DNA from: Candidatus Moraniibacteriota bacterium
GTDB taxonomy: Bacteria > Patescibacteriota > Minisyncoccia > Moranbacterales > UBA1568
Direction: 5' to 3'
NCBI GenBank assembly: GCA_016699385.1
Contig: CP064974.1
Span: 3,242-67,241, forward strand
DNA: 64,000 bases
Made by a program: the position numbers and the translations under genes
Part shown: in pieces, positions 2,062 to 38,031 of the stretch
How positions within the stretch are numbered: position 1 is the first letter of the stretch
Layout: each line of letters starts with the position of its first letter
Notes under the pieces: generated by a model
Told to the model about the DNA's origin: nothing
The model's database searches: none
The model's input: only the letters and a program-made list of their open reading frames with translations

Positions 2062-3697
2062 ATGAAAGAACTCTTGCAATCAGCACTCAAAGACGCATTC
2101 CAATCACTTTTCGATGAAGGAGGGAAGACTCTTTCGTGTGAAGGGGAACCTTCTTTCGATGTGACATTCCCAAAAGATGACTCGCATGGAGACTATACAT
2201 CGAACATTGCTCTTTTCGCTTGCGAGGCATTTGAAGCAATCGCCACTTGATATAGCTCACCGTCTTGAAGAGCAGTTGTCCAAGGATAATCGCTTGAGAC
2301 AATTTACTATTGAAGTTATTTGCTCGGGGTATATCAATTTTTCGGCCACTCCGGAGATGCTTGCGGAATTGTAGCGGAAATATGCGCCAAGAAGAATGAA
2401 TATGGCGCACAAGAGCTCAATGATCATGGCAAGATTCTTCTGGAATTCATCTCTGCCAACCCGACCGGACCGCTCCATATGGGGAATGCTCGCGGAGGAT
2501 TCTTTTGGTGATACGCTCTCGCGAATTCTGAAGAAGTGCGGCTATGACGTTTCAACTGAATATTATGTGAATGATGCCGGGGAGCAGGTTGCGAAGCTTG
2601 GGCATAGTGTCCTTAAAGATACTGAAGCGGTATATGGTGGTGAGTATATCGATGATCTTGGGAAGAGATGGGCGCGACAGTCGGAACTTCGAGTAGACCG
2701 ATCCGCGAGTTGTTGGAGCGTGGGCAGGGCGGATTGTTCTGGAAGAATACATTCAGAAAACCGTTTCGGAGCGAATGGGAATATCGTTTGACGATTTTAT
2801 CTCTGAAAAAAACGATATCGTCGAGGCAGGATATGTCGATCGGGCAATCTCGTTTCTCAAAGAGGAGGGACTGACCCATGAAGAGCAAGGCGCTCTTTGG
2901 CTTCGGACGACGGTATGGTGATGATAAAGACCGAGTACTCATAAAAGCAAATGGAGAAAGGACCTATTTTGCGTCGGACTGTGGGTATCTTCTCCACAAA
3001 AAGGAACGTGGCTTTGACCGAATCAGCGAGGTCTGGGGTGCTGATCACCATGGGTATGTGGCGAGGTTTCACGCGGCGGCGGAGGCACTTGGCTTTGCCG
3101 GGATCGAGTGACGTTTACACTGGTTCAATTGGTACCGCTTGGTAAAGAATGGTCAGAAGTCCGCATGTCCAAGCGCGCTGGGAATATCGTGACGGTAGAT
3201 GAATTGCTCAATCGGATTGATGTTGATGTGGTGCGATTCTTCTTTCTCATGTATTCCCTGATACACATGAATTTCGATATGGGACTTGCCGAAGAGCGAA
3301 GTCAGAAGAACCCGGTCTTCTATGTACAGTATGCTCATGCGCGTATGGCGAGTATTTTCCGGAAAGCCGAAGAAGAACTTGGTATGAATATGCAAGAATT
3401 CTCTGTCAATCAAGAAGAAATACACCTTCAGAATTCGAAAGAGATTCTTTTGGTGCGACACTTGGCGAGATTTTCAGAAGTGCTTTGCTCTGCCGTTGGA
3501 AACGTCTACTGTGCACCAGCTTCCTCAGTATGCGATTCGTCTCGCCGATCTTTTCCACTCGTTTTACAACGAATGTACGGTTCTTGATTCCGGGAATATG
3601 CCCGTGACACGATCACGTCTCGCGCTTGTCGGTGCGACCAAGAATGTGTACTCGCGGAGACGCTTCGATTGATTGGTGTCTCTGTGCCAGAGAGGAT
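2062..3697 (+). pseudogene. argS: arginyl-tRNA synthetase gene broken into at least 6 frames
   Basis: Consecutive ORF pieces carry ArgRS hallmarks: [17 protein letters not shown] (HIGH region), the YVNDAGEQV segment, GADHHGY, the anticodon-binding region RFFFLMY...VQYAHARM, and the C-terminus ...LRLIGVSVPERM* ending at 3697. At least six frame changes are needed to read through. One maps to a T-run (ctcttttcg near 2215). Confidence 0.8.
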
Positions 3698-3781
3698 GTG
3701 AGGCAATTTTCTTGTGGCGCGTTCTTTGACAGTGCTTGGCGCTTTGTTATGCTGACCAAAGTGTCAGTTTTTCTTTTCTTT

Positions 3782-5614
3782 CTATGTCCACCCCGCTTCA
3801 TATTTTGAAAACGCAGGTTTAGGTTTGATCCGTTTCGCTCTCATCAGGAGGCGATTATCGAAGCAGTGCTCGCTGGGAGAGATGCCTTTGTGCTCATGCC
3901 GACGGGCGGTGGGAAGTCGCTTTGCTATCAGATTCCAGCGCTCCTTTTGCCAAATGTCACTGTGGTTATTTCGCCACTCATCGCGCTGATGAAGGATCAG
4001 TGGATGCACTTCCGGGTGGCTGGTGTTGCGGCGGAATATCTCAATTCGTCGCTCTCGCCCGAAGAGCAGGATCGGGTGCTCGCCTCTCTTGTGCGCAGGA
4101 AGACGAAGCTCTTGCATATTGCGCCCGAGCGACTTTTGGCGCGTCATCCCTTGTTCCGTTCTTGCAAGAAGTGGGCGTGTCACTTTTTGCGGTTGATGAG
4201 GCGCACTGTATCTCGGCATGGGGACATGATTTTCGTCCGGAGTATCGCTTCCTTTCCGACCTCAAGAAATTCTTCTCTGCGACGCCGACGGTCGCGCTCA
4301 CGGCAACGGCGGACGATTTGACGAGTCAGGATATTGTCGAACGACTCGCGCTCCACTCACCGCTCTTTTTCAAATCGAGCTTTGACCGTCAAATATCCAC
4401 TATACTATCAACCGAAAGCAAAGATTTTGAGCGATTGATTCGCTATCTTGCAACGCGCCGCAATGATTCCGGTATTGTCTATACGCTGTCACGGAAATCT
4501 GCTGACAGTGTGGCAAGGCGACTTACTGAAGCAGGATTCTCGGCGCTATCCTATCATGCAGGGCTCGATGCGAGTGTACGAGACAAACATCAGGGTCGAT
4601 TTCTCCGCGATGAGACCAAGATTATTGTTGCGACGATTGCTTTTGGTATGGGAATCAACAAGTCCAATGTGCGATTTGTTGTCCATATGGATCTCCCCAA
4701 GAATATCGAGCTACTATCAGGAGACGGGGCGTGCTGGCCGGGATGGTCTTCAGAGTGAAGCGCTCCTCTTCTATTCGCCGGCAGATGTGCAGAAGCTCGC
4801 ACGGTTTGCACTCGTTGATGGGAATGAAGAGCAATCGGTCGTTATGCTCCGCAAGCTCAAACAGCTGGCAGACCTCTGCGAGGCAAATGTGTGCCGACGA
4901 CATCTCATCTTGCGCTATTTCGGTGAAGTTTTTCCAGAATCATGCGATGCCTGTGATGTGTGTCTCTCCGAACGGACGACATTTGATGGCACGCTTATTG
5001 CGCAGAAATTGCTTTCGGCAGTCTTTCGTCTCCATGAGCGAGTTGGTCTTGGCTATACTATAGGACGTGCTTCGCGGATCGAAATCCGAGAAGATCTGCC
5101 CTGAGCATCGTGCCATAAAAACTTTGGCGCGGGCACAGACACTTCTCGGGAAGCGTGGTTTCGCTATGCCAAGGATCTCATCGCATTGGGATTCCTGAAG
5201 CAAGTGGGCGAACCATACCCGACACTTTCACTGACAGAGAAGAGCGCTGCTGTACTTCGTGGTGAGACACGGGTAATGCTGACCGCTTCAGTGGAAGTCA
5301 AAAAGGAAGTAGAGGTAGTCATTCCTGCTCACGAAGCGACACTTCTCGATCAACTCAAAGCGCTTCGTACGGACTATGCGCAGAAAGAAAACGTGCCGCC
5401 CTACATTATCTTCTCCGATGCGACACTTCTCGAGCTTGCCACATTTCTTCCATCGGACATATCCGAGCTTGCGAATCTCTGGCTTCGGAGAAGTGAAGAC
5501 GCGGCGATATGGCAAAGCCTTCCTCAGTGTTGTCGCTACCTATTGTCGAGAACACGGACTGTCATCAAAATGTCGGAGAAAATTTCGGTTCGGTTCTCGC
5601 GAAAGATAAGGTGA
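3782..5614 (+). pseudogene. recQ: RecQ-family ATP-dependent DNA helicase, multiply frameshifted
   Basis: Pieces carry RecQ motifs: AFVLMPTGGGKSLCYQIPAL (Walker A), AVDEAHCISAWGHDFRPEY (motif II), YYQETGRAGRDG (motif VI), a Cys-rich RecQ-Ct zinc region (CDACDVC) and a C-terminal HRDC-like segment (5186..5614). The start MSTPLHILKTQV at 3782 is followed immediately by a frame change. The helicase core is spread over at least four reading-frame segments (3782, 3866, 3922, 4448). Confidence 0.8.
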
Positions 5615-5822
5615 CGCAGAAGTCTGTTTGCCGAGAGACAGGGGTCTCAGCGCGATAGAGACGCACTTTTGGAAAGTTGAGATTTCTCAACTTCGCTCGG
5701 AAATGGCTATGGCTTCCGCTCTATCGTTTCAAGCAAAGTATTTTCTCTCGTATTCTGCGGAGGGCGAGTTGTTTCAGAAGATGCGCGTGTGATGATACAA
5801 TGGTGATATCAAAACCCCCTCT

Positions 5823-7321
5823 ATGAAACTCTCCCTCACATTTCCTCCAGTGGGGCGGCATCGCCGCCGTGCTGCTTGTTGTCGTCGGACTCAAACTACG
5901 ATTTCGAATCCAAAGCCAGCATGCAGCTCAATGGTTCTGTCGAGAGCTCGCTCTCCCAATCCCTCCGCGGCTACTGGAAACTCGATGACGGCTCCGGCAC
6001 CAACGCGACCGACAGTAGCGGAAACACGAACACCCTCGCCATGACCGGCTCCCCCGAGTTGGACGACGGGGAATATCGGTCCATACGCTCTCGACTTCTC
6101 CGGCTCCGGACAATACCTCTCCGTCGCCGATCCCGCAAGCGGTGTCCTCGACTTTGCCGATGGCGCCGACTTCTCCATCACCGGCTGGTTCAACCGAGAC
6201 TTTTCACCGCCGATCACGATCGTCGCCAAGAAAACAGATCTAACGACCAATGCCGGCTATGTGCTATGGATAGATAACAATGGAGGAACCGATTACCTCA
6301 ACTTCGAGATCGCCGATGGAACCGATACCTACAGCGTCGCTTCCTCTACCGACTTCAGCGCGACCGGTTGGCACAACTTTGCCGCCGTCTGGGATGACTC
6401 GAACGGCATGTATCTCTATATAGATGGCGGTCTCAACAGTAGCACGACCACATCAACCGCAAGTATCGGCAGTCTCGCCAATACCAATGCCTTCCGTATC
6501 GGCGCGGAATCAGATGCGGGCGTTCCCTTTGACGGGAAGCTCCGACGATATTCGCGTCTATGGCTCCGCCCTGAGCGCAAGCGATGTCTTGAAGCTCTAC
6601 CAAACGACCGCGCCGGCACAGCCGGTCGACACAGGGCTCGTCGGGCACTGGACCTTTGACGGACCGGATATTGCGGGGACGACCGCGATCGATCGGTCAA
6701 GTTTGGGAATAATGGAACGATAACGGGAGCGGTACCGACGATCGGGAAATTGGGCCAGGGGATGGGGTTTGATGGGACGGCGTCTACCTCAATCGATGCC
6801 GGGTCGGGGAGTTCTCTCGATAATCTGCCTGCCATGACCATAGCTTTCTGGGTGCGCATTGAATCCTTCCCGACCTTAAAGAACTATGTCCTCTCGAAAG
6901 ATTTGAATTGTTGCGGCGCGTCGGTCGGATGGATAACATCATTCCATTCGTACTACAAAATGTTTGCCCTCGAAGTACAATACGATGGCGGAACGAATTT
7001 GAACGCGAGTACACCGGACAATAGTTTCACTAGCAGTGACTTCGGAGTATGGACGCATGTGGCAGTCACTTGGACAGGAGCCAGTCAACATCGGGTATGA
7101 CCTTCTACAAAAAACGGAGTCAGCTTTGACAACAAGCAATTGGGATGACGGAATAGGGGAGCCGTGCTGATGATAGCGGCTATCCGGTTACAAATTGGCG
7201 CCGCCCCAAACTACGAAGGGGAAATGGAATTGACGGCTCCCTCGACGATATACGCCTCTATACCCGCGTCCTCTCGGCGACGGAAGTAGTGAACCTCTAT
7301 ACTCTCCAGGCGGTAGGGTGA
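5823..7321 (+). pseudogene. degraded paralogue (copy A) of the 3xLamG surface protein
   Basis: Fragmented frames reproduce blocks of the intact 38066..40228 protein (SQSLRGYWKLDDGSGTNATDSSGN..., WIDNNGGTDYLNFEIADGTDTY..., DDIRVYGSALSASDV...). There are several frame changes, plus a TM-like WGGIAAVLLVVVGL segment that is out of frame with the ATG. Confidence 0.65.
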
Positions 7322-7437
7322 TAGATGGAACGAGAAGCTTAGATACCTCATTCAATCCATTCAAGCGTGTTCATTTGTAAAAAATAATTTTCTAGCCGTC
7401 ATCCATACTGCCCCTCAAAATATCGGTCAAGAAGAGA

Positions 7438-10400
7438 ATGTTTCCATCAGTTTTCTTTTCGGTCACTGCCCTTTTTCTGTTCGTCGGTATTTCTTCAAGC
7501 GCCGAAGCAACCAAACAAATATGTGCGCCAGGTGCTTCTGGGAGTGGGAGCGATTGGGCGAACGCGTATGCGACATTGCCGAGCGATCTGACCCGCGGCG
7601 ATACCTACTACATCGCGGATGGGAGTTACGGCAGCTACACCTTCGACGACAACGCCAGCGGTACAACGCCGATCACTATCAAGAAATGCACTGCGAGCGA
7701 TCAAGGACGGAGACGGGGTACAGTTCGGCTTATTGCGACGGGCAGGCGGTATTTGGGTCATTTATTTTTGCGAGTGACTACTGGATTATTGATGGTGCAA
7801 CGCGGAATGAAAGTAATTGGGCTGATGGTGGTGCGTACGGTTTCCGCGTATCAACGTTCTCGGCGAACACGTCATTCTCGCCGGGAGTGTGCGCATCTAA
7901 TCTGACAATGCAGTATGTGAACGCAGGGGGCACGCCCACGGAAACCCGCCGACAGGCGGCGTGGACGCAGCATTTTTATATAGGCGGTTTTGATGAATAT
8001 TGTCAGAATTGGACGATGTCTCACAACTATGTGCACGACACAATCACAACCTATCATATGAATGGAGTACGGGGCGGGTTGATCGAGTACAGCTATATCG
8101 TAAATGGATGGTCAAAAGGAAGCGATCCGCGGTCAAATTTGTATGAGCAATTTTCCATTCGGCATAATATCTTCAAGGATTCCTGTCAGGGGAATCCTGC
8201 CGATCCCACAGCTGGTGCTTGTACTGGGACAATTGCCCTTTTTGATGGTTTTACGAAAACTCGGCATACGGGCTAATTCGAAAATCTACGGAAATGTTTT
8301 ATGGGTAATCAATAGTGCATCTATGCAAGATGCTATCATTGTTATCGGTGGATCAAACGACAATGTTCCGGGAGTGGAAATCTACAATAATACCCTGGCG
8401 GGTTTTAAGGAAGGGAATCTCGCTGGCTTGGTCCGAGGTTCGGGTAGCGTATGCCGAAACAATCTGTCATACGATACTGCCGCATCGGTTGCCTATAGTT
8501 GCTCGTCATCGTCAAATAACATTCACAGTAATATTTCCCCGTTCGTCAACTACTCAGGAGGAGATTTCCGCCTGTCTGGAGCTACGGCGGCGGGTTATTC
8601 TGGGTTCCTACAACGCGGATTTATTGAGCAATACCCGCGGGGCCGACGGGCACCTGGGACATCGGCGCCTACGAGTACACCTCCGGCTCTAGTACCCCGA
8701 CACCACTTCTCCCACTTCTCCCACCGGCCTCGCCGCAAACGCCACGAGCCAATCGAGCATCACCGTCTCCTGACCGCCTCGACCGATCCGATAGTCGCGG
8801 GACAGACCACCTCAGGTATTTCCAATTACATCGTCGAGCGCTGCCAAGGCTCCGGTTGTTCCACCTTCACCCAAGTCGGCACTCCGACCACCTCTCCCTT
8901 CGTCGACTCCGGCCTCACGCCAAACACCTTTTACAACTACTCACGTCCGCGCTGACCGATGCCCGGGAATCTCTCCGGCTGGTCCAATGTGGTCGGTGCC
9001 ACCACGCAGTCGGGCGGAGTCAATTATTACATCCGTGACGGAGGCACATCCTCAACCTGTACCGACTGGACGAATGCCTGTGGATTCGCTTCCCGTCGAC
9101 TCTGGTGCGCGGGGCAACCTACTATATCGCGGATGGGAGTTACGGCAGCTACACCTTCGACGACGACGCGAGCGGTACGACACCGATTACAATCAAGAAA
9201 TGCATTGCGAGCGATCACGGGACGGGGACGGGATACAGTGCGGACTATTGCGACGGGCAGGCGGTATTTGGCGGTCTGTATTTGCTCTCGCCCTTACTAT
9301 GTCATCGACGGCGCCACGCGAAAATGAAAGTAACTGGAAGGACGCCGGGGCTTATGGCATTAGAGCGACTGAAGTTCGGGCGTCTCGGCTCGATGGAGGA
9401 CATTTCCCATCAGGTGAATGCTCGGCGGATAATCTGTCGTTCAGCTATTTGCACGTCGGCAATACGGGACTACTTATGCCACATACACCGGGTCGAGATC
9501 TTTTTATCTAGGCGGGTTTGGGGCGGTGCGCTAGCCTGCCAAAAATTGGTCGATCTCTCGGGTACTTATTCAGAACACGCTGGAGTTGCAGTGCGCTGGC
9601 GGCGAAGGGCTTCTTGTTGAGAAAAGCTGTTTTACAAAGGTTGGTCCAAGGAAGCAATAGGGGGCAAGTGCATTGCAAGGATGCGATTGTTCGATGGAAT
9701 ATTTTTGAGGATTCATGTCACAATCCGCAAGAGGGCTATGCTTGTACTGGTGAAATTGCTGCTTGGGATGGAAATGCCAACTCAATGGATGCGTGGCAAT
9801 CTATGGTAATGTCTTCTACAAGACAGGGCAAGACACTTATCTCAATACAGACGCTGTTGTGATGATTGGAGATACGGTTGGTCCTGGGCCGACATTAATA
9901 ATTCCGTTGCATACGACAATACTATTGCAGGAATTAAGGTTGGTTATAATTCGAGCATCCACTAAACGGTGGCACAGGCAATGTCTGTCGCAATAATCTC
10001 TGGTATGATACCAAGACCAGTGGTTGTTCCGCGAATACTTCTAGCAATAATATCCTAGCTACTAGCAATCCGTTTGTTAATTATCCGGGCGGCGATTTGC
10101 GATTGTCCGGTACCACGGCGGCGGGTTATTCTCTGGGTTCACCCTACAACGCGGATTTATTGGGCAGCACCCGCGGTGCCGACGGCACCTGGGACATCGG
10201 CGCCTACGAGTACACCTCCGGCTCTAGTACCCCTGACACCACTTCTCCCACGTCTCCCATTTTACAACTATCATGTCCGCGCAACCGATGCCGCCGGGAA
10301 TCTCTCCGGCTGGAGCAATGTGGTCGGCGCCACCACACAAGCTCCTGATACGCAAGCGCCCACAGCTCCGAGTAATCTCCAAACCTCCGTCGTCTCATCC

Positions 10401-11736
10401 TCCAGCATCAACCTCGCCTGGACGGCAAGCACAGACAATGTCGCCGTCACCAATTACACCGTCGAACGCTGCTCCGGAACTTCCTGCACCACCTTCACCC
10501 AAATCGCCACTCCAACGACCAACTCCTACTCCGACGCCGGTCTTACGGGAACGACGACCTACCGCTACCGAGTCCTCGCAACCGATGCCGCCAACAACAC
10601 TTCCCCCTACTCAAATATTGCTTCCGCCACGACCCCCGAGACACCTCCCGTCTCCCAGTATCTCCAGGCGGGCTACAACTTTGCCGAAGGCACCGGCACC
10701 ACGACCCAAGACATCTCCGGTCACAATCACACCGGTACTCTCTCCAATACCACCTGGTCGACGAGCGGCAAATACGGAAACGCTCTCGACTTTAACGGAA
10801 CGAGCAGCTCTGTCGGTATTGGAAACTGGAACATTCCCGGAAGCGCCATCACCCTAAGCGCCTGGGTACGGGCGGACGACTGGAAGACGGACGATGTCCG
10901 CATCCTCTCCAAAGCAACCGACAGTACCGAACAGGGACATACCTGGATGCTCTCCGATTCCAATAGTCTCCTCCGCTTCCGCCTCAAAACCGGTGGCACA
11001 ACCACAACCCTCGTTGCAACGAGCGGCACTCTCCAAACAAATGTCTGGACTCATGTCGCCGCGGTCTATGACGGAAGCACGATGACACTCTACAAAGACG
11101 GACTCGAAGTCGGAAGCCAAGCCAAAACCGGCACCATCGATCAAAACACCGCCAACATTTCAATCGGAGCAAACCCGAAGGCTCCAACTCCTTTGACGGT
11201 ACGATAGACGATGTCCGCATCTACAACAAGGCGCTCACGCAACAAGAAATCCAAACCGATATGAATACCCCGCTCACCCAAGGAGGAAGCGGAACCCAAG
11301 TTTGCAACACCGTGACGACCGCGAACTTCTCCGATGCCGCTTACAACAGTTACGGCGCGCCTTTCGATGCGTTTCAAACGAGTACGAATCTGATGAATGC
11401 ACTGTGCACCAGCGCCGACACGCATACCATCACGTTCACGACCGGAGTAACGGAGACACCGCGAGAATCGTCTACACCAAAGGCTACTGGTACGATGCAA
11501 TAGGAAGCGCCTGGCGACAATACACCGGCACCTGCACGGGAGCGCTCAATGGCGAGTGGTGCCAAGGCTCCGTCTCCGCGACGATCACGGATGCCAATGT
11601 CTCCACTTCCGGGACGGGCTCACCCACCTACCTGGTCGGGATGACCTGCAGTGTGCAGGGAGGTGGGTGGAAGTGTGGGTGTAGAGATACGACGTGCGCG
11701 AATTTTTCGTGGCAGATACAGGGAGCGGGGATGTAG
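7438..11736 (+). pseudogene. degraded paralogue (copy A) of the large beta-helix/FN3/LamG surface protein
   Basis: The signal peptide MFPSVFFSVTALFLFVGISSSAEA is followed by more than 10 ORF fragments. Together these recapitulate the domain order of the 40316..44951 protein: beta-helix, FN3, second beta-helix, FN3x2, LamG, then the Cys-rich C-terminal domain ending GAGM* at 11736. Confidence 0.7.
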
Positions 11737-11773
11737 AAACGAAGATTTTGCGTCCCAATTATCTTTCCAACCT

Positions 11774-13967
11774 ATGTTTTCTATCCGACTCTTTCTTGGA
11801 CAATCATTGCGCTTTTTCTTGCTGTGGGGGCGGGGTTCTACTGGAAACACCAAGGGCAGAATGAATCAAAAGCCGGGACGACGGTGAATGCGCCCGAAAC
11901 AACAATCAATACGCTCACGACCGGACTCGTCGGGCATTGGACATTTGATGCCCTCGATATCTCCGGGACGACGGTAACGGATCGGGGAACCGGAGGAAAT
12001 GACGGGACGATCACGGGAGCAGTGCCAGCCTTGGGGAAACTGGGTCAGGGGATGGGGTTTGATGGGGGTGGGGATTATGTTTGCATGGGCGATGTCCTTG
12101 CATTCGAACGTACCGACCCATTTTCGCTTTCGGCATGGGTTCATCTCGCGACAGACTCGGATGTAGACGGTTCAATAATCGGAAAGATGGGTCCTACCCC
12201 TGATCAGCGAGGATACGACATCTATGCTTCGACCGCTTCATGGAAAGCGAATATTCGAAACAGCGATTCCGGTTCCAATGGCATCACCGTGAATGGACTT
12301 TCCGATATCGCCGATGAAACATGGCACCATATCGCTGTGACGTATGACGGTTCCTCGAGCGCTTCGGGGGTCACTCTGTACGTCGATGGCGCGGATGATA
12401 CGGGCACGACTGACATGGATACGCTTTCCGCTACCATTGTCTCGAGTGCGGATTTTTCGATGGGCACACGAAACTGCACCCCTTCGCCCATCTTTGATGT
12501 TAAGGGGGTGATCTGACGATGTTCGCATCTACTCCCGCGCGCTCACCCAAGCGGAAGTCTACCAGCTCTCCACTGCCGGCGTGGCGACGGTGAACGCTCC
12601 TGTCGAAGACCCCTCTCCCAATCCCTCCGCGGCTACTGGAAACTCGATGACGGCTCCGGCACCAATGCGACCGACAGTAGTGGAAATGCAAACACCCTCG
12701 CCATGACTGGCTCTCCCGGTTGGGTGACCGGAAACATCGGTCCCTCTGCCCTCGACTTCTCCGGAAGCGGACAATACCTCTCCGTCGCCGATCCCGCAAG
12801 CGGTGTCCTCGACTTTGCCAATGGAGCCGACTTCTCCCTCACAGGCTGGTTCAATCGAGACACTTTCACCGCCGACCACACCATCGTCGCCAAGAAAACC
12901 GACCAAGCTACCAATGCCGGCTATGTCGTCTGGATAGATGCCTCTACCGATACGGTCAACTTCGAAATTTCTGATGGTACCTATACCTACGAAGCAGACT
13001 CTACCACAACATTCACATCAACCGGTTGGCATCACTTCACTGCCGTCTGGGATGATAGTCGTGGTGCCTCTGTCTATATCGACGGAGGACTCAATGGAAG
13101 CACAGAAACCTCTACCAGTAGTATAGGAGACCTCTCGAACGCCAATGCCTTCCGTATCGGAGCCGAATCCGACGCCGGAGTTCCTTTTGATGGCAAGCTC
13201 GATGATATCCGCGTCTATGGCTACGCTCTCTGCTGACGAAGTAAAGAAGCTCTACAATACCACGAGCCCCGCCCAACCCGTCGACACCTCCTTGGTTGGG
13301 CACTGGACGTTTGATGGTCCGGATATTCAGGGAGTACCGCAATAGACAGGAGTAGCTTCGGGAACAATGGGACGATAACGGGAGCGGTACCGGTGAAGGG
13401 GAAATTGGGCCAGGGGATGAGTTTTGATGGGGATGGGGATTATGTGTATGCCGGGTCGGGGTCGTCGCTTGCCAATTTGAGCGCTCTCACGATTTCATTT
13501 GGATGAATTTGGATTCGTTTGGCCAGAATAGCCAGGGAAATGTTATCAACAAAGGTTCCGATTGTTGCACGCCTTTGGAAGGATTTCTCGTGAGAGTGGA
13601 CGGAATATATAATTTTGTCGTATTTGGTGTTGATTATGATGGAGCGACAGATCTTGCAATGCAGTCCCTTGATAATTCTCTGACGAGTTCAGATTTCGGT
13701 ATCTGGAATCATATCGCGGTGACATGGACCGGATCATCCGCAGCGACGAGCGTCGTCATATACAAGAACGGACAAAATGTCACTCAGTCATCCGGCGACA
13801 ATGGCATCGGAAGTCGGAGAGACGATTCCGGATCGGGTTTCCATATTGGAGTTGATGCAGGATGGCCCATTGCGCGTGCTTTTGATGGGAAACTCGACGA
13901 TGTCCGCCTCTACAATCGTGTCCTCTCGGCAACGGAAGTAATGAATCTCTATACTCTCGGGCGGTAG
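11774..13967 (+). pseudogene. degraded paralogue (copy B) of the 3xLamG surface protein
   Basis: The ATG at 11774 is out of frame with the TM/LamG reading frame, and there are at least 5 further frame changes. The 3' part (12596..13967) is identical to 38853..40228 except for single-base homopolymer/dinucleotide deletions (cccc->ccc, ctctct->ctct, gggg->ggg, tttt->ttt). Confidence 0.7.
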
Positions 13968-14350
13968 GGCGATAGATGGAACGAGAAGCATAGATACCTC
14001 ATTCAATCCATTCAAGCGTTCATTTGTAAAAAATAATTTTCTAGCCGTCATCCTATGCTACCCCTCAAAATATCGGTCAAGAAGAGAATGCTCCGATCAG
14101 TCTTCTTTTCGGTCACTGCCCTTTTTTTGTTCATCGGTATTTCTTCAAGCGCCGAAGCGGCAAACAAATATGTGCGCCAGGGTGCTTCTGGGAACGGGAG
14201 CGATTGGACGAACGCGTATGCGACATTGCCGAGCGATCTGACCCGCGGCGATACCTACTATATCGCGGATGGGAGTTACGGCAGCTACACCTTCGACGAC
14301 AACGCCAGCGGCACAACGCCGATCACGATTAAGAAATGCACTGCGAGCGA
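12596..14350 (+). repeat. dispersed duplication: about 1.76-kb block essentially identical to 38853..40635 (26 kb away)
   Basis: Minus- and plus-strand ORF-track peptides 12633..12914, 12720..12974, 12938..13126, 13546..13737 and 13788..14051 are letter-for-letter identical to 38890..39171, 38977..39231, 39195..39383, 39807..39998 and 40049..40312. The offset drifts from 26257 to 26261 because of 4-5 single-base indels. Confidence 0.9.
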
Positions 14351-17063
14351 TCATGGGACGGAGACTGGGTACAGTTCGGCTTATTGCGACGGGCAGGCGG
14401 TATTTGGGTCATTTATTTTTGCGAGTGACTACTGGATTATTGATGGTGCAACGCGGAATGAAAGTAATTGGGCTGATGGTGGTGCGTACGGTTTCCGCGT
14501 ATCAACGTTCTCGGCGAACACGTCATTCTCGCCGGGAGTGTGCGCATCTAATCTGACAATGCAGTATGTGAACGCAGGGGGCACGCCCACGGGAAACCCG
14601 CCGACAGGCGGCGTGGACGCAGCATTTTATATAGGCGGTTTTGATGAATATTGTCAGAATTGGACGATGTCTCACAACTATGTGCACGACACAATCACAA
14701 CCTATCATATGAATGGAGTACGGGGCGGGTTGATCGAGTACAGCTATATCGTAAATGGATGGTCAAAGGAAGCGATCCGCGGTCAAATTTGTATGAGCAA
14801 TTTTTCCATTCGGCATAATATCTTCAAGGATTCCTGTCAGGGGAATCCTGCTGATCCCACAGCTGGTGCTTGTACTGGGACAATTGCCCTTTTTGATGGT
14901 TACGAAAACTCGGCATGCTGGGCTAATTCGAAAATCTACGGAAATGTTTTATGGGTAACCAATAGTGCATCTATGCAAGATGCTATCATTGTTATCGGTG
15001 GATCAAACGACAATGTTCCGGGAGTGGAAATCTACAATAATACCCTGGCGGGTTTTAAGGAAGGGAATCTCGCTGTCTTGGTCCGAGGTTCGGGTAGCGT
15101 ATGCCGAAACAATCTGTCATACGATACTGCCAGATCGGTTGCCTATAGTTGCTCGTCATCGTCAAATAACATTCACAGTAATATTTCTCCGTTCGTCAAC
15201 TACTCAGGAGGAGATTTCCGCCTGTCTGGAGCTACGGCGGCGGGTTATTCTCTGGGTTCACCCTACAACGCGGATTTATTGAGCAATACCCGCGGTGCCG
15301 ACGGCACCTGGGACATCGGCGCCTACGAGTACACCTCCGGCTCTAGTACCCCCGACACCACGTCTCCCACTTCTCCCACCGGCCTCGCCGCAAACGCCAC
15401 GAGCCAATCGAGCATCACCGTCTCCTGGACCGCCTCGACCGATCCGACAGTCGCAGGACAAACCACGTCAGGTATTTCCAATTACGTCGTCGAACGCTGC
15501 CAAGGAACAGGCTGTTCCACCTTCACCCAAGTCGGCACTCCGACCACCTCTCCCTTCGTCGACTCCGGCCTCACGCCAAACACCTTTTACAACTATCACG
15601 TCCGCGCGACCGATGCCGCCGGGAATCTCTCCGGCTGGTCCAATGTGGTCGGCGCCACCACACAAGCTCCTGATACGCAAGCGCCCACAGCTCCGAGTAA
15701 TCTCCAAACCTCCGTCGTCTCATCCTCCAGCATCAACCTCGCCTGGACGGCAAGCACAGACAATGTCGCCGTCACCAATTACACCGTCGAACGCTGCTCC
15801 GGAACTTCCTGCACCACCTTCACCCAAATCGCCACTCCAACGACCAACTCCTACTCCGACGCCGGTCTTACGGGAACGACGACCTACCGTTACCGAGTCC
15901 TCGCAACCGACGCCGCCAACAACCTCTCCCCCTATTCGAATATTGCTTCCGCGACCACGCCCGTTGCGCCTCCCGTCTCCCAGTATCTCCAGGCGGGCTA
16001 CAACTTTGCCGAAGGTACCGGCACCACCACCCAAGACATCTCCGGTCACAACCACGCCGGTACTCTCTCCAATACAACTTGGTCGACGAGCGGCAAATAC
16101 GGAAACGCTCTCGACTTTAACGGAACGAGCAGCTCTGTCGGTATTGGAAACTGGAACATTCCCGGAAGCGCCATCACCCTAAGCGCCTGGGTACGGGCGG
16201 ACGACTGGAAGACGGACGATGTCCGCATCCTCTCCAAAGCAACCGACAGTACCGAACAGGGTCATACCTGGATGCTCTCCGATTCCAATAGTCTCCTCCG
16301 CTTCCGCCTCAAAACCGGTGGCACAACCACAACCCTCGTTGCAACGAGCGGCACTCTCCAAACAAATGTCTGGACTCATGTCGCCGCGGTCTATGACGGA
16401 AGCACGATGACACTCTACAAAGACGGACTCGAAGTCGGAAGCCAAGCCAAAACCGGCACCATCGATCAAAACACCGCCAACATTTCAATCGGAGCAAATC
16501 CCGAAGGCTCCAACTCCTTTGACGGTACGATAGACGATGTCCGCATCTACAACAAGGCGCTCACGCAATCAGAAATCCAAACCGATATGAATACGGCGCT
16601 TACTTCGGGAGGAGGCGGTACGGTCGCCTGCAACACGGTGACGACCGCGAACTTTTCCGATGCCGCTTACAACAGTTACGGCGCGCCTTTCGATCCCTTC
16701 ACGAGTAACACCCCGCTTGTCAATGTGACCTGTAACAGCGCCGATACCGACACGATCACTCTCACGACCGGCATAACCGGCGACACGACCCGCATCGTCT
16801 ACACCAAAGGCTACTGGTACGATGCAATAGGAAGCGCCTGGCGACAATACACCGGCACCTGCACGGGAGCGCTCAATGGCGAGTGGTGCCAAGGCTCCGT
16901 CTCCGCGACGATCACGGATGCCAATGTCTCCACTTCCGGGACGGGCTCACCCACCTACCTGGTCGGGATGACCTGCAGTGTGCAGGGAGGTGGGTGGAAA
17001 TGCGGATGTCGGGACACGAGTTGTACGAATTTCTCGTGGCAGATTCAAGGGGCGGGACAGTGA
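14055..17063 (+). CDS. large secreted surface protein (copy B, intact): signal peptide, right-handed beta-helix (pectate-lyase-like) domain, 2 FN3 domains, LamG_3 domain and an about 150-aa Cys-rich C-terminal domain
   Basis: 1002-aa ORF. The likely true start is the second ATG at 14088 (MLRSVFFSVTALFLFIGISSSAEA), which has a GAAGAGA RBS. A beta-helix cap motif (RGADGTWDIGAYEY) and two FN3-like units (ITVSWTASTD...YNYHVRATDAAGNLSGWSN; INLAWTASTDNVAVTNYTVERC...YRYRVLATDAANN) are present. A LamG_3 signature (GNALDFNGTSSS...ITLSAWVRADDW...FDGTIDDVRIYNKALTQSEIQ) follows, then a C-terminus with 8 Cys (...GGGWKCGCRDTSCTNFSWQIQGAGQ*). Confidence 0.8.
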   Translation: MLPLKISVKKRMLRSVFFSVTALFLFIGISSSAEAANKYVRQGASGNGSDWTNAYATLPSDLTRGDTYYIADGSYGSYTFDDNASGTTPITIKKCTASDHGTETGYSSAYCDGQAVFGSFIFASDYWIIDGATRNESNWADGGAYGFRVSTFSANTSFSPGVCASNLTMQYVNAGGTPTGNPPTGGVDAAFYIGGFDEYCQNWTMSHNYVHDTITTYHMNGVRGGLIEYSYIVNGWSKEAIRGQICMSNFSIRHNIFKDSCQGNPADPTAGACTGTIALFDGYENSACWANSKIYGNVLWVTNSASMQDAIIVIGGSNDNVPGVEIYNNTLAGFKEGNLAVLVRGSGSVCRNNLSYDTARSVAYSCSSSSNNIHSNISPFVNYSGGDFRLSGATAAGYSLGSPYNADLLSNTRGADGTWDIGAYEYTSGSSTPDTTSPTSPTGLAANATSQSSITVSWTASTDPTVAGQTTSGISNYVVERCQGTGCSTFTQVGTPTTSPFVDSGLTPNTFYNYHVRATDAAGNLSGWSNVVGATTQAPDTQAPTAPSNLQTSVVSSSSINLAWTASTDNVAVTNYTVERCSGTSCTTFTQIATPTTNSYSDAGLTGTTTYRYRVLATDAANNLSPYSNIASATTPVAPPVSQYLQAGYNFAEGTGTTTQDISGHNHAGTLSNTTWSTSGKYGNALDFNGTSSSVGIGNWNIPGSAITLSAWVRADDWKTDDVRILSKATDSTEQGHTWMLSDSNSLLRFRLKTGGTTTTLVATSGTLQTNVWTHVAAVYDGSTMTLYKDGLEVGSQAKTGTIDQNTANISIGANPEGSNSFDGTIDDVRIYNKALTQSEIQTDMNTALTSGGGGTVACNTVTTANFSDAAYNSYGAPFDPFTSNTPLVNVTCNSADTDTITLTTGITGDTTRIVYTKGYWYDAIGSAWRQYTGTCTGALNGEWCQGSVSATITDANVSTSGTGSPTYLVGMTCSVQGGGWKCGCRDTSCTNFSWQIQGAGQ

Positions 17064-17097
17064 GAGTTCAAAGTTAAAAGTGAAAAATTCAAAGTTG

Positions 17098-17390
17098 AGG
17101 GAATTGCGTACGGGCGATTCCGGGTAATCGCCCTGTTCCCGTATTGTATTCCCATTTGCGCATTTGTATCCGCGCCCATTCCCGTTTTTCGTTCCCGCAT
17201 ACGGGTACGGGTACGGGGCGATTACGAAGAATCGCCCCTACCAAACGGGAACAGATACGCATCCGGGAACGGAAACGAGCCTGCATTCGGGTGCCGGCCT
17301 TGAATCATGATTTGCTTGATTAAAGGATGGAGAGGATTGCGTACGGGCGATTCCGGGTAATCGCCCCATGTTTTTGTTTTTGTCTGTTAC
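17098..17390. repeat. nested inverted-repeat element with three GGGCGATT-N6-AATCGCCC hairpins and a 31-nt direct repeat
   Basis: The 31-nt string attgcgtacgggcgattccgggtaatcgccc occurs at 17103..17133 and 17336..17366. The hairpins lie at 17112..17133, 17215..17238 (ggggcgatt-acgaag-aatcgcccc) and 17345..17366. Between the first and second hairpins are GTTCCC(G) repeats, and between the second and third the complementary CGGGAAC repeats. The third hairpin is followed by a T-rich tract (atgtttttgttttt). Confidence 0.6.
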
Positions 17391-17467
17391 GAAGCACGTC
17401 TTCTTCGCAATACGAATATGGGAATAAAGAAATTGACCGTTTGCTCGTTTTTTGTTATGATTCGCTT

Positions 17468-17671
17468 ATGACCACACGATCCATACTTGCCACATTCAGG
17501 ATTTTTCAAAAATCTCCGACTAAGAGTGCACTCCGTCGGAGCTATTTTGGCGCGTTTGAAAAGAAAATGGTCTATCGAACTACGAAGAGTGAAAACCCAG
17601 AACTCTCAATGAAAACGGTCAATGCGGTTTTCCGGAAATTGAGAACCAAAACGCATGCGTCATCTCGGTGA
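17468..17671 (+). CDS. candidate Fic antitoxin (small ORF with the [ST]xxxE[GN] inhibitory-helix motif)
   Basis: A 67-aa ORF (MTTRSILATF...MVYRTTKSENPELSMK...) contains TTKSEN, which matches the (S/T)xxxE(G/N) alpha-inh motif of class I Fic antitoxins. It overlaps the Fic start by 17 nt. It lies inside the longer, repeat-overlapping ORF 17327..17671, so the start is uncertain. Confidence 0.3.
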   Translation: MTTRSILATFRIFQKSPTKSALRRSYFGAFEKKMVYRTTKSENPELSMKTVNAVFRKLRTKTHASSR

Positions 17672-18284
17672 AACCAGCTACAAGCAAACGGCCTTTGGCA
17701 TTCTCCCGCGTTCCAAACTGATTCCCCTCGAAGTGGAAGGAATCAAACGGGCGTGGGATTTTGTTGTGAAGAAAAGCGAGGAGGGAGCGGATATGCTCAC
17801 GCTTCAATTCTTACAAGAAGCGCACCGCGAAGGTTTCGGATGGATATTCCCCGACATGGGTGGCAAATTTCGAACAATCGATGTCTCTGTTTCTCACCAT
17901 ACGCCCCCGAAATTTTACCTCGTTCCCGGACTCATGGATGATTTCCTGAAAGATGTTCACGTGAGGATGGAGAGTTTGTTGAAAGTTGAGAACGATACTT
18001 TTATAGACGAGCTTGTCACCCTTCTCGCGTGGGCGCATCACCGATTTCTCTGGATCCATCCGTTCTTGGATTACAACGGACGCATCGGTCGATTGCTTAA
18101 CAATATCATTCTCCTCTCGCTCGATTTTCCGCCAATCGAACTTAAGGTGGAGACAAAATCAGGGAGAAAGGCATATGTTGAGGCGCTTCAAGCGGCGGAT
18201 TCCGGCAACCTCTCCGCGCTGGAAGAAATGGTAAAAGCTGCTTTTACCGAAGCGGCGGAAAAAATGAAGGAGTTGCCCGAATAG
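17655..18284 (+). CDS. fic: Fic/Fido-domain protein with a degenerate active-site motif (HPFLDYNGRIGR)
   Basis: 209-aa ORF. AWAHHRFLWIHPFLDYNGRIGRLL matches the Fic core motif HxFx(D/E)GNGRxxR, except that the first Gly is replaced by Tyr. Confidence 0.75.
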   Translation: MRHLGETSYKQTAFGILPRSKLIPLEVEGIKRAWDFVVKKSEEGADMLTLQFLQEAHREGFGWIFPDMGGKFRTIDVSVSHHTPPKFYLVPGLMDDFLKDVHVRMESLLKVENDTFIDELVTLLAWAHHRFLWIHPFLDYNGRIGRLLNNIILLSLDFPPIELKVETKSGRKAYVEALQAADSGNLSALEEMVKAAFTEAAEKMKELPE

Positions 18285-18289
18285 CAACG

Positions 18290-18591
18290 ATCAGTAGTAT
18301 CGGCGACACCACCCGAATCGTCTACACCAAAGGCTACTACTATGATCCCGGTATTGCTGACTGGCATCAGTTTACCGGCACCTGTACAGGTGCCCTCAAT
18401 GGAGAATGGTGCCAAGGAAGTATCACTGCTTCCATTACCGATACCGATATCTCGACTGCGAGTGCCATAGACCCTGCCTACTTTGTCGGGATGACCTGCA
18501 GTATCCAAGGTGGTGGATGGAAGTGTGGGTGTCGGGATACAACGTGTTCAAACTTCTATTGGCAGGTGCAGGGGGCGGGGTTGTAGAGTGA
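18290..18591 (+). pseudogene. orphan 3' fragment encoding only the Cys-rich C-terminal domain of the large surface-protein family
   Basis: In-frame translation gives ISSIGDTTRIVYTKGYYYDPGIADWHQFTGTCTGALNGEWCQGSITASITDTDISTASAIDPAYFVGMTCSIQGGGWKCGCRDTTCSNFYWQVQGAGL*. This is about 75% identical to the C-termini of the 14055 and 40316 proteins. There is no start codon and no upstream domains. It begins 6 nt after the Fic stop. Confidence 0.7.
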
Positions 18592-18624
18592 GGGGTGATG
18601 GATTACTTACATCACATATCACAT

Positions 18625-18652
18625 TGACTTTCTTCTTGTTTTCGAAGATACT
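18625..18652 (+). promoter_or_regulatory. possible sigma70-like promoter for the atp operon (TTGACT-17-GATACT)
   Basis: TTGACT at 18625..18630 and GATACT at 18647..18652 lie immediately upstream of the atpB ORF. This is sequence pattern only. Confidence 0.25.
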
Positions 18653-19459
18653 GTGAGTAAGGGAAAGGTTTTTATTTCATCTGCTTTTTGGCAGAGGGTT
18701 TTTGTTTGTGTTATGAATATCTCCATTGCAGCGGAAACGCTCTTCCATCTTTGGGGGTTTCCAGTGACCAATACCATTGTACTGACACTCATTATCAGCG
18801 GTGCGCTCATCATTTTCTCAGTGCTTTTCTTTAAGAAACTCACGCTTGTGCCGGGGAAATTGCAGTCAGGTGTCGAGGCGGTGTTTGAGATGCTCTGGAG
18901 TCTTGTGGTAGATGTTGCCGGAAATGATCGTTTGGCACGGAAGTTCTTTCCAATTGTGGCGACGATTTTCCTTTTTGTGCTGTTCTCAAATTGGATTGAG
19001 TTGGTACCAGGACTTGGCACGGTGGGACTTCGCGCGGGACACGAGACGATTCCGTTTTTGCGAAGCGCTTCTGCGGATCTTAATATGACACTTGCTCTTT
19101 CTCTGGTAGTGGTATTCTTGGTGCAGTTTATCGGTATTGCGACGATTGGTGTTGCAAAATATGCGAGCAAGTTCCTCGTGAGTCCTTTTCAGAAGCCTTA
19201 TGGTGTTGGGACTTTCATGGGACTTTTGGAATTGATGGGGGAGGCGACGCGTGTTATTTCGTTCTCATTTCGTCTCTTTGGAAATATTTTTGCCGGGGAA
19301 GTACTTCTCATCGTTGTGCTCAATCTTGTGCCGTATTTTGTGCCGCTTCCGTTTCTTTTCCTGGAGCTCTTTGTGGGTGTGGTGCAGGCGGCGGTGTTCT
19401 CCATTCTGACGCTCGTATTTCTCAAGATGGCGACACTTGAGCCAGAGCACGCGCATTAG
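18653..19459 (+). CDS. atpB: F0F1 ATP synthase subunit a
   Basis: Multi-TM protein with the conserved subunit-a C-terminal region (FRLFGNIFAGEVLL...). It is the first gene of the atpBEFHAGDC cluster. The likely real start is the ATG at 18713 (MNISIAAETLF). Confidence 0.85.
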   Translation: MSKGKVFISSAFWQRVFVCVMNISIAAETLFHLWGFPVTNTIVLTLIISGALIIFSVLFFKKLTLVPGKLQSGVEAVFEMLWSLVVDVAGNDRLARKFFPIVATIFLFVLFSNWIELVPGLGTVGLRAGHETIPFLRSASADLNMTLALSLVVVFLVQFIGIATIGVAKYASKFLVSPFQKPYGVGTFMGLLELMGEATRVISFSFRLFGNIFAGEVLLIVVLNLVPYFVPLPFLFLELFVGVVQAAVFSILTLVFLKMATLEPEHAH

Positions 19460-37717: not shown

Positions 37718-38031
37718 GAGTCGTTTTTGCCAACGACTCTCACAAAGAAAATGCCCACCATACGCGTGGTTATTTTTTTGTAAAATCATTTTTTCTATCC
37801 CTACACCCCTCCCCCTTGCACCTGCCAGTTGAAACTCGCACACGCCGTATCCCGACACCCGCACTTACACCCGCCACCCTGCACAGAGCCCGTCATCCCC
37901 ACAAGGTAGGCAGGGTCTGTGGCGCTTGCGGTACGAGTATCAATATCTACAGTATACCACTTCTCTCTCATTTTTTTCACCGGTTGTTTTACGAGTCACT
38001 TCTCATATTTTCGTTCAAGAATTCGGGACCA

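Follow-up and report, generated by a model that had tools for sequence, protein, structure and literature searches.

The window, a 64,000-nucleotide stretch of Candidatus Moraniibacteriota DNA, contains a Fic-domain gene in which the first Gly of the active-site motif is replaced by Tyr. This gene follows a small overlapping ORF and is flanked by an intact surface-protein gene and by an orphan fragment of a related gene. The question raised by this locus is whether it carries a decayed enzyme or a working two-gene module and, if the latter, of which kind. The first-pass annotation had described a Fic toxin with a degenerate motif and a candidate antitoxin. The analyses described here make it fairly likely that the locus is a self-contained operon of two genes with the architecture of class I Fic modules, encoding a partner-inhibited enzyme in a candidate toxin-antitoxin-like cassette.

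The Fic gene spans 17655..18284 on the forward strand and encodes a protein of 209 aa, as determined from the ORF call and from Pfam, AF2 and Foldseek analyses. A match to Pfam PF02661 (E=3.1e-15; 57.2 bits versus a cut-off of 24) placed the ORF in the Fic/Fido domain family. An AF2 model of the protein (pLDDT 91.6) had the Fic fold, with a Foldseek probability of 1.00 to FICD, EcFicT, EfFic, NmFic and VbhT. The motif HPFLDYNGRIGR was located at residues 135-146 (nt 18057-18092), in agreement with the coordinates and the motif reported at first pass. The signature residues are H135-P-F-L-D-Y140-N-G-R-I-G-R146, and comparison with the canonical signature HPFx(D/E)GNGRxxR detected a single departure, namely Tyr140 (codon 18072-18074) at the position of the first Gly, all other positions being canonical.

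A Tyr at this position could have resulted from decay, the nucleotide-binding nest being wrecked, the Fic protein catalytically dead and the small ORF a product of chance. According to PMC8401265, PFxxGN is strictly conserved among the Fic domains of Bartonella and the first Gly is "required for steric reasons", so that canonical AMPylation by a Tyr-type Fic is not assured. A total of 461 Fic homologues were gathered independently of the motif, and motif counts were taken over the best 120. HPFxDYNGR was present in 120/120 of these, and an alignment of the homologues (A1) indicated that all catalytic motif residues other than the first Gly were invariant, with the His, Asp, Asn, second Gly and both Arg residues retained in the family. 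The invariance of the Tyr in the best 120 homologues and the retention of the other catalytic and phosphate-binding residues point to a selected signature and not to decay, and the description of the motif as degenerate was not borne out. Furthermore, Tyr or Phe occupied the first-Gly position in 72 of the 129 motif-showing sequences among the best 150 cluster representatives, which indicates an old, selected state. With the invariant catalytic residues, the confident AF2 model and the conservation of the small ORF (see below) set against it, a dead enzyme is very improbable and, on these sequence comparisons, largely refuted. As judged from the same alignments, the Tyr is a fixed feature of the family and no sign of lost function, and Tyr140 probably tunes substrate or nucleotide handling. 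A search of the literature on the DYNGR/DFNGR motif, on Fic proteins in CPR and on the "mobile mystery protein" found nothing relevant. The Phe form (HPFxDFNGR) was larger, occurred elsewhere and was sometimes fused to restriction-modification-like N-termini; these relatives had a conserved N-terminal "HGVR" segment.

The small partner gene, a candidate trans-acting inhibitor or antitoxin, is located at 17468..17671 on the forward strand and encodes 67 aa; a longer 114-aa version with a start at 17327 was present in the mechanical ORF list. The gene overlaps the Fic start by 17 nt in a different frame, and the TTKSEN motif noticed at first pass was verified at residues 38-43 (T38, E42 and N43; nt 17579-17596). 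Of the 640 proteins in the partner family, every one was named "hypothetical" and no Pfam domain was assigned to any. The motif [ST]xxxE[GN] was kept in 119/120 of the partner homologues listed from this family, and T38 and E42 were invariant in two partner alignments (A2 and A4). Differences between the small ORF and its counterpart in relative L086 fell mainly at third codon positions (9/4/21). The conservation of the small ORF, its third-position-biased divergence and the size of the family argue against a chance ORF, and by these sequence measures it is a conserved gene. An AF2 model of the partner (pLDDT 85) contained helices at residues 3-15, 21-42 and 48-65, with E42 at the C-terminal end of predicted helix 2. 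Comparison of the partner profile with PDB and with Pfam detected only chance-level matches, as did a Foldseek search with the partner model, in which no similarity to VbhA or FicA was observed.

[quoted passage not shown] Here the motif belongs to the small protein, whose gene adjoins that of the Fic enzyme, and the AF2 model of this protein has it at a helix C-terminus. A partner ORF of 55-65 aa with [ST]xxxE[GN] was located directly upstream of Fic in 69/75 related loci, the overlap commonly being a 4-nt ATGA. The first-pass proposal of a real class I-type module with an inhibitory-helix motif on the upstream ORF was upheld, on comparative evidence much stronger than the sequence of the window could offer. 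No intramolecular inhibitory helix was detected in the Fic proteins, as 116 of the best 120 of the 461 homologues lacked [ST]xxxE[GN] and the remaining 4 had it at non-conserved positions. These features are shared with the class I modules VbhT/VbhA and FicT/FicA. In those modules, too, the gene for a small protein directly precedes and overlaps that for a Fic protein of ~200 aa without an internal inhibitory helix, the partner has (S/T)xxxE(G/N) at a helix C-terminus, and the modules are mobile and sporadically distributed. The class I partner binds and inhibits the enzyme, and Fic freed of its partner inhibits growth, its targets being gyrase and topoisomerase IV. The Fic fold is also held in common with EcFicT and VbhT (TMq 0.65-0.67), although the present enzyme is only 14-18% identical to them and the link was undetected by sequence. 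In contrast to the shared architecture, homology to FicT/VbhT and FicA/VbhA was lacking, the Fic protein being FICD-like and the partner having no PDB or Pfam relative. The first motif Gly of class I enzymes is Tyr in the present one, and the steric requirement for this Gly (PMC8401265) counts against the class I reading. Similarly, homology to FicA or VbhA could not be detected in the partner, and its motif is carried on predicted helix 2 of 3, whereas the VbhA/FicA motif is on helix 1 (PMC8401265); the absence of sequence or fold similarity and the position of the motif both count against this reading.

Transcription of the pair was examined with a promoter scan. A sigma-70-like promoter of the two-gene operon was detected at 17433..17461 on the forward strand (TTGACC, 17-nt spacer, TG-TATGAT), with a score of 10 of 12 and an extended -10, and this predicted promoter was conserved in relatives L084-L088. 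The end of the -10 box and the ATG of the small ORF are 6 nt apart, which implies a leaderless mRNA. A -10 box ending ~6 nt ahead of this ATG scored at least 9/12 in 26/69 related loci, compared to 1% of background positions, and the operon mRNA is probably leaderless. Upstream of the promoter is a hairpin-rich spacer (17064..17432, forward strand; repeat families D3, I1 and I2), which confirmed the structured repeat element previously noted on the left flank of the module. Three copies of a GTAC-flanked palindromic repeat were present (17097-17133, 17201-17237 and 17330-17366), and the 30-nt core of the repeat was a perfect duplicate, with 0 expected by chance. The RNA fold of the spacer was better than that of every shuffle (z=-3.6), and relative L086 had hairpins at the same place with other stem sequences (z=-4.2). 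The last repeat copy is followed by a T-run, producing a terminator-like site at 17345-17376. An Rfam scan of 16900-18800 detected no match.

As judged by sequence comparison and by the predicted fold, the enzyme is nearest to FICD and not to FicT or VbhT. In a phmmer search of PDB the Fic ORF matched FICD (E=7e-20, about 30% identity), and no match to FicT or VbhT was observed at E<0.01. The top Foldseek matches of the model were to FICD (TMq 0.68-0.75), followed by EcFicT, EfFic and VbhT, with the structural matches having only 14-18% identity. FICD/HYPE and FIC-1 of Caenorhabditis elegans, which belong to class II and are bifunctional AMPylases/de-AMPylases, were the best sequence and structural relatives (E=7e-20; TMq up to 0.75), and this nearness to a bifunctional enzyme rather than to the FicT/VbhT toxins counts against the class I reading. 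The phmmer homology of the Fic ORF to FICD starts just after the FICD inhibitory helix. Alignment by hhalign placed VYRTTKSEN of the partner on IYHTVAIEGN of that helix, weakly (E=7.7e-4, probability 25%). The present pair, taken together, is collinear with the FICD core, the small-ORF segment YRTTKSENPELS being weakly aligned to the FICD inhibitory helix YHTVAIEGNTLT. In contrast to FICD, in which enzyme and inhibitory helix form one chain, the present pair has the helix on the partner and resembles a class II enzyme split in two. The N-terminal inhibitory helix in the same polypeptide that marks class II was absent, the two ORFs being separate and overlapping here and separate in 69 loci. 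The present pair further differs from FICD by the lack of TPR or transmembrane regions, by the Tyr in place of the first Gly, and by its bacterial host and mobile distribution. An internal PLEVEG of the Fic protein was considered as an inhibitory motif and rejected, since it is mid-helix (helix 19-42, AF2) and lacks S/T; in the phmmer alignment it was placed on the FICD helix after the inhibitory one.

The relationship to FICD and FIC-1 suggested an alternative in which the pair is a reversible modification switch and not a toxin. The glutamate would then be catalytic for de-AMPylation, as in FICD and EfFic, the partner would be a regulatory subunit toggling between addition and removal of AMP, and the pair would constitute a regulatory post-translational-modification system rather than an addiction or defence module. 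This alternative is favoured by the absolute invariance of Glu42 and by the unusual conservation of the enzyme across lineages. Fic identity across several Patescibacteria lineages was 60-67%, which is high for a typical fast-evolving toxin and counts against the toxin-antitoxin reading. The distribution of the family points the other way. It was sporadic, 185,579 species genomes yielding 107 confirmed stretches; the family occurs mostly in Patescibacteria/CPR (ultra-small bacteria), and no neighbour family was common to more than 5 of 80 related loci. A relative with an 83%-identical Fic had DNA homology to the window over the two genes only, in an unrelated context, and in the distant relative L081 the homology was limited to the two genes at 17468-18264, beginning at the start of the small ORF. 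With its variable neighbours and its own promoter, the Fic/partner pair is autonomous. The earlier proposal of an addiction module stabilising the cassette array was unsupported, given the lack of a conserved neighbourhood in the 80 loci and the presence of the pair in unrelated contexts in other genomes, including that of the 83%-identical relative.

Model searches also bear on this alternative. Among curated and candidate models, TIGR02613, PDC-S04 and SoFic scored best against the Fic ORF. PDC-S04 (E=9e-26) and SoFic (E=8e-20) are PADLOC models of defence candidates that have no curated threshold, and a defence activity of the Fic protein is putative. NCBIfam TIGR02613 ("mobile mystery protein B") matched over nearly the full model length with 54.6 bits; membership was rejected as this score is far under the 124.4-bit cut-off, and 7 relatives scored 34-83 bits, all under the same cut-off. 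The partner of the TIGR02613 family is the helix-turn-helix protein TIGR02612, and no helix-turn-helix partner of this kind was seen at the Fic locus. The sporadic spread, the lack of fixed neighbours, the self-contained unit of a promoter and two genes that moves between contexts, and the matches to defence-candidate models fit a mobile toxin-antitoxin or defence cassette better than a housekeeping regulator, and a reversible switch is rather unlikely.

For a class I-type cassette inhibited by its partner, what we infer of binding, inhibition, toxicity, chemistry and target can be set out as follows. The promoter of the operon would produce a probably leaderless mRNA, from which the 67-aa helical protein and, from the overlapping start, the 209-aa Fic protein would be translated. 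The enzyme retains His135 (catalytic), Asp139 (Mg-binding), Asn141, the second Gly and the two Arg residues that bind phosphate; with these kept, it should still bind a nucleoside triphosphate and transfer a phosphoryl-linked group, most likely AMP, onto a target hydroxyl. By analogy with VbhA/FicA and with the FICD helix, Glu42 of the partner would enter the active site, pair with Arg146 and block productive binding of ATP, so that the enzyme would be active only once the partner was lost or outnumbered. The pair would thus behave as a mobile toxin-antitoxin-like, possibly defence-related cassette, which may have landed next to a surface-protein paralogue at this locus or displaced most of it.

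The chemistry of the enzyme could differ from this scheme. Doc and AnkX have an active Fic fold with Ala at the first-Gly position, and their chemistry is phosphorylation and phosphocholination, respectively, and not AMPylation. They provide a precedent for a side chain at this position, as in the present Fic protein, although they combine Ala with other motif differences whereas a bulky aromatic residue is here set in an otherwise canonical motif. It is conceivable, though unlikely, that the D[Y/F]NGR proteins form a Fic clade with a remodelled nucleotide pocket and a chemistry other than canonical AMPylation, comprising the Tyr form, which in Patescibacteria is paired with a Glu helix acting in trans, and the larger Phe form elsewhere. 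Such a clade could use a different nucleotide, bind its donor in an inverted orientation as in Doc/AnkX, or be dedicated to obligate de-modification.

The origin of the arrangement was examined in the flanking genes. The 1223 nt from 17064 to 18286 fill the exact space between the stop codon of the surface-protein gene at 14055..17063 and an orphan remnant (18287..18586, forward strand), which derives from the Cys-rich C-terminal domain of a LamG/fn3 surface-protein paralogue; this placement agreed with the first-pass description. The remnant begins 2 nt past the Fic stop codon, and its 300 nt form a gapless copy, 70% identical and offset by 1523 nt, of the 3' end of the intact gene (16764..17063, forward strand), so that the two copies of the duplication bracket the module. 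The orphan frame is open, with no start codon before 18491 (the last 31 codons), and in tblastn the fragment was 68-72% identical to three C-terminal domains (at 11446, 16782 and 44667). Of the 91 mismatches to the intact copy, 51 were at third codon positions, with no adenine bias. A DGR adjoins the module in relative P0006, and this neighbour prompted the idea that the orphan was part of such an element. A DGR template/variable repeat relationship was ruled out by mismatches that involved all four bases and were not adenine-specific, and the window ORFs that were scanned yielded neither RVT nor Avd. As judged from its sequence, the orphan is a diverged coding remnant and not a DGR template.

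An insertion that truncated a paralogue is plausible. More specifically, it is quite possible, if short of probable, that the module, arriving by recombination or insertion, took the place of the 3' end of a surface-protein paralogue, an origin compatible with either function of the pair. Either the 14055 gene acquired its present 3' domain together with the module, the orphan then being the original 3' end, or a downstream paralogue lost most of its length by deletion. The coding-type divergence of the orphan and its position 2 nt past the Fic stop are consistent with this origin, as are the end of the module homology block at 18264, just short of the junction, and a second orphan fragment on the minus strand at 37801-37947. 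Furthermore, the last 93 codons of the 14055-17063 gene were 97% identical to the copy at 11452-11730 (tblastn), whereas the preceding 95 codons were only 79% identical, and this step indicated that recombination recurs at about residue 904-909. The count behind the original suggestion of a fourth paralogue is approximate. Homologous copies were present at 7405-9012, 9090-11730, 14055-17063 and 40431-44951, the first two being frame-broken, besides the second orphan fragment. Tandem Repeats Finder detected nothing at 55-63 kb, where the repeat period lies beyond its limit. Other observations weigh against an insertion. All close relatives recovered (L084-L088, 93-95% nt identity) share the layout of the interval, and no relative with an empty site or an intact paralogue was found. 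No target-site duplication, integrase or transposase was detected, and the GC content had no anomaly. An atpB-based metagenome scan for empty sites recovered L089 as the only close relative; it had another neighbour upstream of atpB and differed by the whole upstream block, with the surface genes missing as well as Fic, and so was uninformative about Fic alone.

At this locus, the analysis corrects the reading of the Fic motif as degenerate and identifies the orphan as a paralogue remnant and not a retroelement template. It also defines a large family that has had no specific annotation, with >460 enzymes and about 640 partners, mostly in Patescibacteria, and supplies a further candidate for a toxin-antitoxin or defence module in organisms for which genetic manipulation does not yet exist. 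Fic enzymes are a model for the use of one fold for several protein modifications and for gating by a single glutamate. In this family an aromatic residue is fixed where the literature has a sterically obligatory Gly, while the trans-acting inhibitory glutamate is kept, and this combination provides a clean test case for the role of the first Gly. If the D[Y/F]NGR chemistry is altered, the pair found in CPR bacteria would represent an as yet uncharacterised kind of two-component switch, for reversible modification or for defence.

The open reading frame (ORF) at 17655-18284 encodes a 209-aa protein in which, by the ORF list and the sequence, HPFLDYNGRIGR forms residues 135 to 146. A match to Pfam PF02661 was obtained at 57 bits (cut-off, 24), and the best solved relative was human FICD (E = 7e-20). 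An AF2 model of the protein had a pLDDT of 91.6, and a Foldseek search with this model placed FICD at the top (TMq, 0.68 to 0.75), followed by EcFicT, EfFic, NmFic and VbhT. The assignment of this ORF as a Fic protein is solid. Tyr140 replaces the first glycine of the HPFx[DE]GNGRxxR motif, and the first-pass annotation had regarded the motif as degenerate. A motif-blind HMMER search recovered 461 homologues, mostly of 205 to 213 aa and with 60 to 67% identity, whose sources span many lineages of Patescibacteria (Morani-, Uhr-, Kuenen-, Kerfeld- and Buchananbacteria among them). HPFxDYNGR was present in all 120 of the homologues listed, and tyrosine is thus a family signature and not a sign of degeneracy. 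An alignment of 28 Fic sequences had invariant His, Pro, Phe, Asp, Tyr, Asn, Gly, Arg and second Arg residues. When 50%-identity cluster representatives were searched exhaustively, the motif was visible in 129 of the 150 best matches, with the first-Gly position occupied by glycine in 54, phenylalanine in 52, tyrosine in 20, leucine in 2 and threonine in 1. This prevalence among homologues and representatives indicated that an aromatic residue is an ancient state, kept by selection, in a clade of considerable size. The nearest NCBIfam model was TIGR02613, 'mobile mystery protein B' (54.6 bits for the Fic ORF and 34 to 83 for its relatives; cut-off, 124.4), and no NCBIfam model covered this aromatic clade. 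The substitution is noteworthy, since the Fic literature describes the first glycine as 'required for steric reasons' and Bartonella Fic domains show strict conservation of PFxxGN (PMC8401265), but it does not represent decay.

Relatives with phenylalanine at this position (HPFxDFNGR; proteins P0132-P0136, P0142, P0154, P0159, P0168, P0170, P0176, P0182 and P0186) were often longer and had a conserved 'HG[VLI]R..G' segment ahead of the Fic core. Some of their N termini resembled the C-terminal end of restriction-modification/BREX methyltransferases (LYGLTEEEI) or helicase-like regions. The [ST]xxxE[GN] inhibitory motif was not seen by eye in P0132, the sole Phe-type relative inspected.

Upstream of the Fic ORF and in another frame, a 67-aa ORF extends from an ATG at 17468 to 17671, overlapping the Fic start by 17 nt, and residues 38 to 43 of this ORF are TTKSEN. 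A scan using one genome per species produced 80 loci, 75 of which had enough upstream DNA; the scan patterns included WIHPFxDYN, so that tyrosine is present in these loci by construction and its invariance rests on the motif-blind homologue set. An ORF of 55 to 65 aa ending between -23 and +40 nt relative to the Fic start was detected in 69 of the 75 loci, commonly with a 4-nt ATGA overlap at the junction. The motif segment read YRTTKTEN in close relatives, and distant ones carried RTMRLEG or RTTKLEG; most of the remaining loci had near-variants such as TTKTER and STMRLEG. A profile of these small ORFs detected 640 proteins, all annotated as 'hypothetical' and none with a Pfam domain; the 120 that were listed had a median length of 62 aa, and 119 of them kept [ST]xxxE[GN]. 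Thr38 and Glu42 were the sole invariant internal residues in alignments. Differences from a relative with 93 to 95% nucleotide identity were distributed as 9, 4 and 21 over the three codon positions and were hence mainly in the third. The AF2 model of the partner (pLDDT, 85) contained three helices, with the helix of residues 21 to 42 ending exactly at Glu42, a geometry described for Fic inhibitory helices (PMC8401265). The Fic proteins themselves had no conserved internal inhibitory motif, with none at all in 116 of 120. Overall, these comparisons indicated that the small ORF with its inhibitory motif, as proposed in the first-pass annotation, is a real and conserved partner and that the pair has the class I Fic architecture by the published definition (PMC8401265).

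The pair lies within 1,223 nt (17064-18286) between the stop of a 1,002-aa LamG/fn3 surface-protein gene (14055-17063) and an orphan copy of the 3' end of that gene. The duplication is gapless over 300 nt (16764-17063 and 18287-18586; offset, 1,523 nt); the orphan begins 2 nt past the end of the Fic ORF and lacks a start codon upstream of its final 31 codons. The 91 mismatches involved all four bases, with 51 on third codon positions, and the orphan is therefore what remains of a paralogue whose divergence took place under coding selection. The mismatch pattern also ruled out a template repeat of a diversity-generating retroelement, an idea prompted by such an element in a relative. The close relatives L084-L088 (93 to 95% nucleotide identity) had the whole layout in common, from the surface-gene end through the hairpin spacer and the pair to the orphan and atpB; in L089, the only other close atpB relative (89% aa identity), homology was lost at 18622 and a hydrolase-like ORF was present upstream. 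As no informative empty site was found among these close relatives, the proposed insertion into, or displacement of, a surface-gene paralogue is plausible, though unproven.

The hairpin spacer (17064-17432) contains three GTAC-flanked hairpin repeats within 17097-17366, and its RNA fold was better than that of every shuffle (z = -3.6). Four hairpins with different stem sequences were present at the same place in L086 (260-560; z = -4.2), with the 23-nt direct repeat CTTGAACCTTGATTTTCTTGATT on either side. In the window, the last copy and a T-run resemble a terminator for the surface gene, and there was no Rfam match to the spacer hairpins. The array may represent either a set of terminators or a palindromic element that is small and mobile.

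The Cys-rich C-terminal domain (93 aa) of the LamG/fn3 surface proteins occurs on the plus strand at 11452-11730, 16782-17060, 18287-18586 and 44667-44951, with a second orphan on the minus strand at 37801-37947, so that the two orphans, both promoterless, are on opposite strands. Between the 11452-11730 copy and the 14055 gene, identity was 97% in the domain and 79% in the preceding segment, with a breakpoint in this mosaic near residues 904 to 909 and, in one copy, a frame change exactly at the domain junction. The domain thus behaves as a separable cassette and unit of recombination. ORFs are intact from 14055 onwards; within 2396-13967, genes are split over several frames (argS-like, 2396-3587; recQ-like, 3866-5614, in three to four frames; LamG paralogues, 7405-11730 and 12610-13967), which could reflect local assembly frameshifts or a pseudogenised block. 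A long tandem repeat at 56247-61352 consists of eight 161-aa ORFs, each with an antisense ORF, and its 660-nt period is longer than Tandem Repeats Finder can handle.

No neighbouring gene family was common to more than 5 of the 80 loci. In P0006, a relative with 83% identity in the Fic protein, DNA homology to the window was confined to 17468-18264, starting at the small-ORF ATG and ending slightly short of the Fic stop codon, and the neighbours of the pair there include a T2SS ATPase gene and a diversity-generating retroelement. The side on which this retroelement (RVT_1, bAvd and a target gene with LamG_3 and Fib_succ_major) flanks the pair differs between the P0006 contigs (L081, L082; ENA contig IMX8e_cs). 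A promoter scan identified TTGACC, a 17-nt spacer and TG-TATGAT at 17433-17461, ending 6 nt before the ATG, and this promoter was kept in close relatives. A -10 box about 6 nt before the small-ORF ATG matched at least 9/12 in 26 of 69 loci, compared to 1% of background positions, and its recurrence implies a probable leaderless transcript and sets the true start at 17468 rather than 17327. Some family-bearing contigs from TPA assemblies were labelled 'uncultured Gammaproteobacteria', 'Pseudomonadales' or 'Woesearchaeota' (L003, L021, L050, L053, L059-L061, L063, L065-L067, L076, L078 and L080), the family being otherwise found in Patescibacteria, which suggests either that bins were mislabelled or that the host range is wider than assumed.

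The Fic enzyme matched the PADLOC defence-candidate models PDC-S04 (E = 9e-26) and SoFic (E = 8e-20). Variable neighbours, the two-gene homology block, the pair's own promoter and these matches favour a mobile toxin-antitoxin or defence-type cassette. A role in stabilising the surface-gene array, as first suggested, found no support. Neither in sequence nor in fold was any similarity of the partner to FicA or VbhA detected (profile searches of PDB and Pfam; Foldseek), and the Fic enzyme did not detect FicT or VbhT in a PDB sequence search; the pair instead resembled a FICD-type protein split in two. Alignment with hhalign placed partner VYRTTKSENPELSMKTV on the FICD inhibitory helix IYHTVAIEGNTLTLSEI, albeit weakly (E = 7.7e-4; probability, 25%), and FICD homology to the Fic ORF begins about 20 residues past that helix. 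Since the inhibitory glutamate of FICD and EfFic also supports de-AMPylation (PMC6408439; PMC8401265), the main rival is that this split-FICD-like pair is a reversible modification switch and not a toxin, which we consider rather unlikely beside the favoured cassette. The locus encodes a genuine Fic enzyme and its cognate partner, whose helix would inhibit the enzyme in trans, a mechanism that motif, position and conservation suggest with fair confidence. The Tyr-type Fic proteins form a large family, mostly in Patescibacteria, without specific annotation, and the importance of this family hinges on whether the aromatic substitution alters Fic chemistry.
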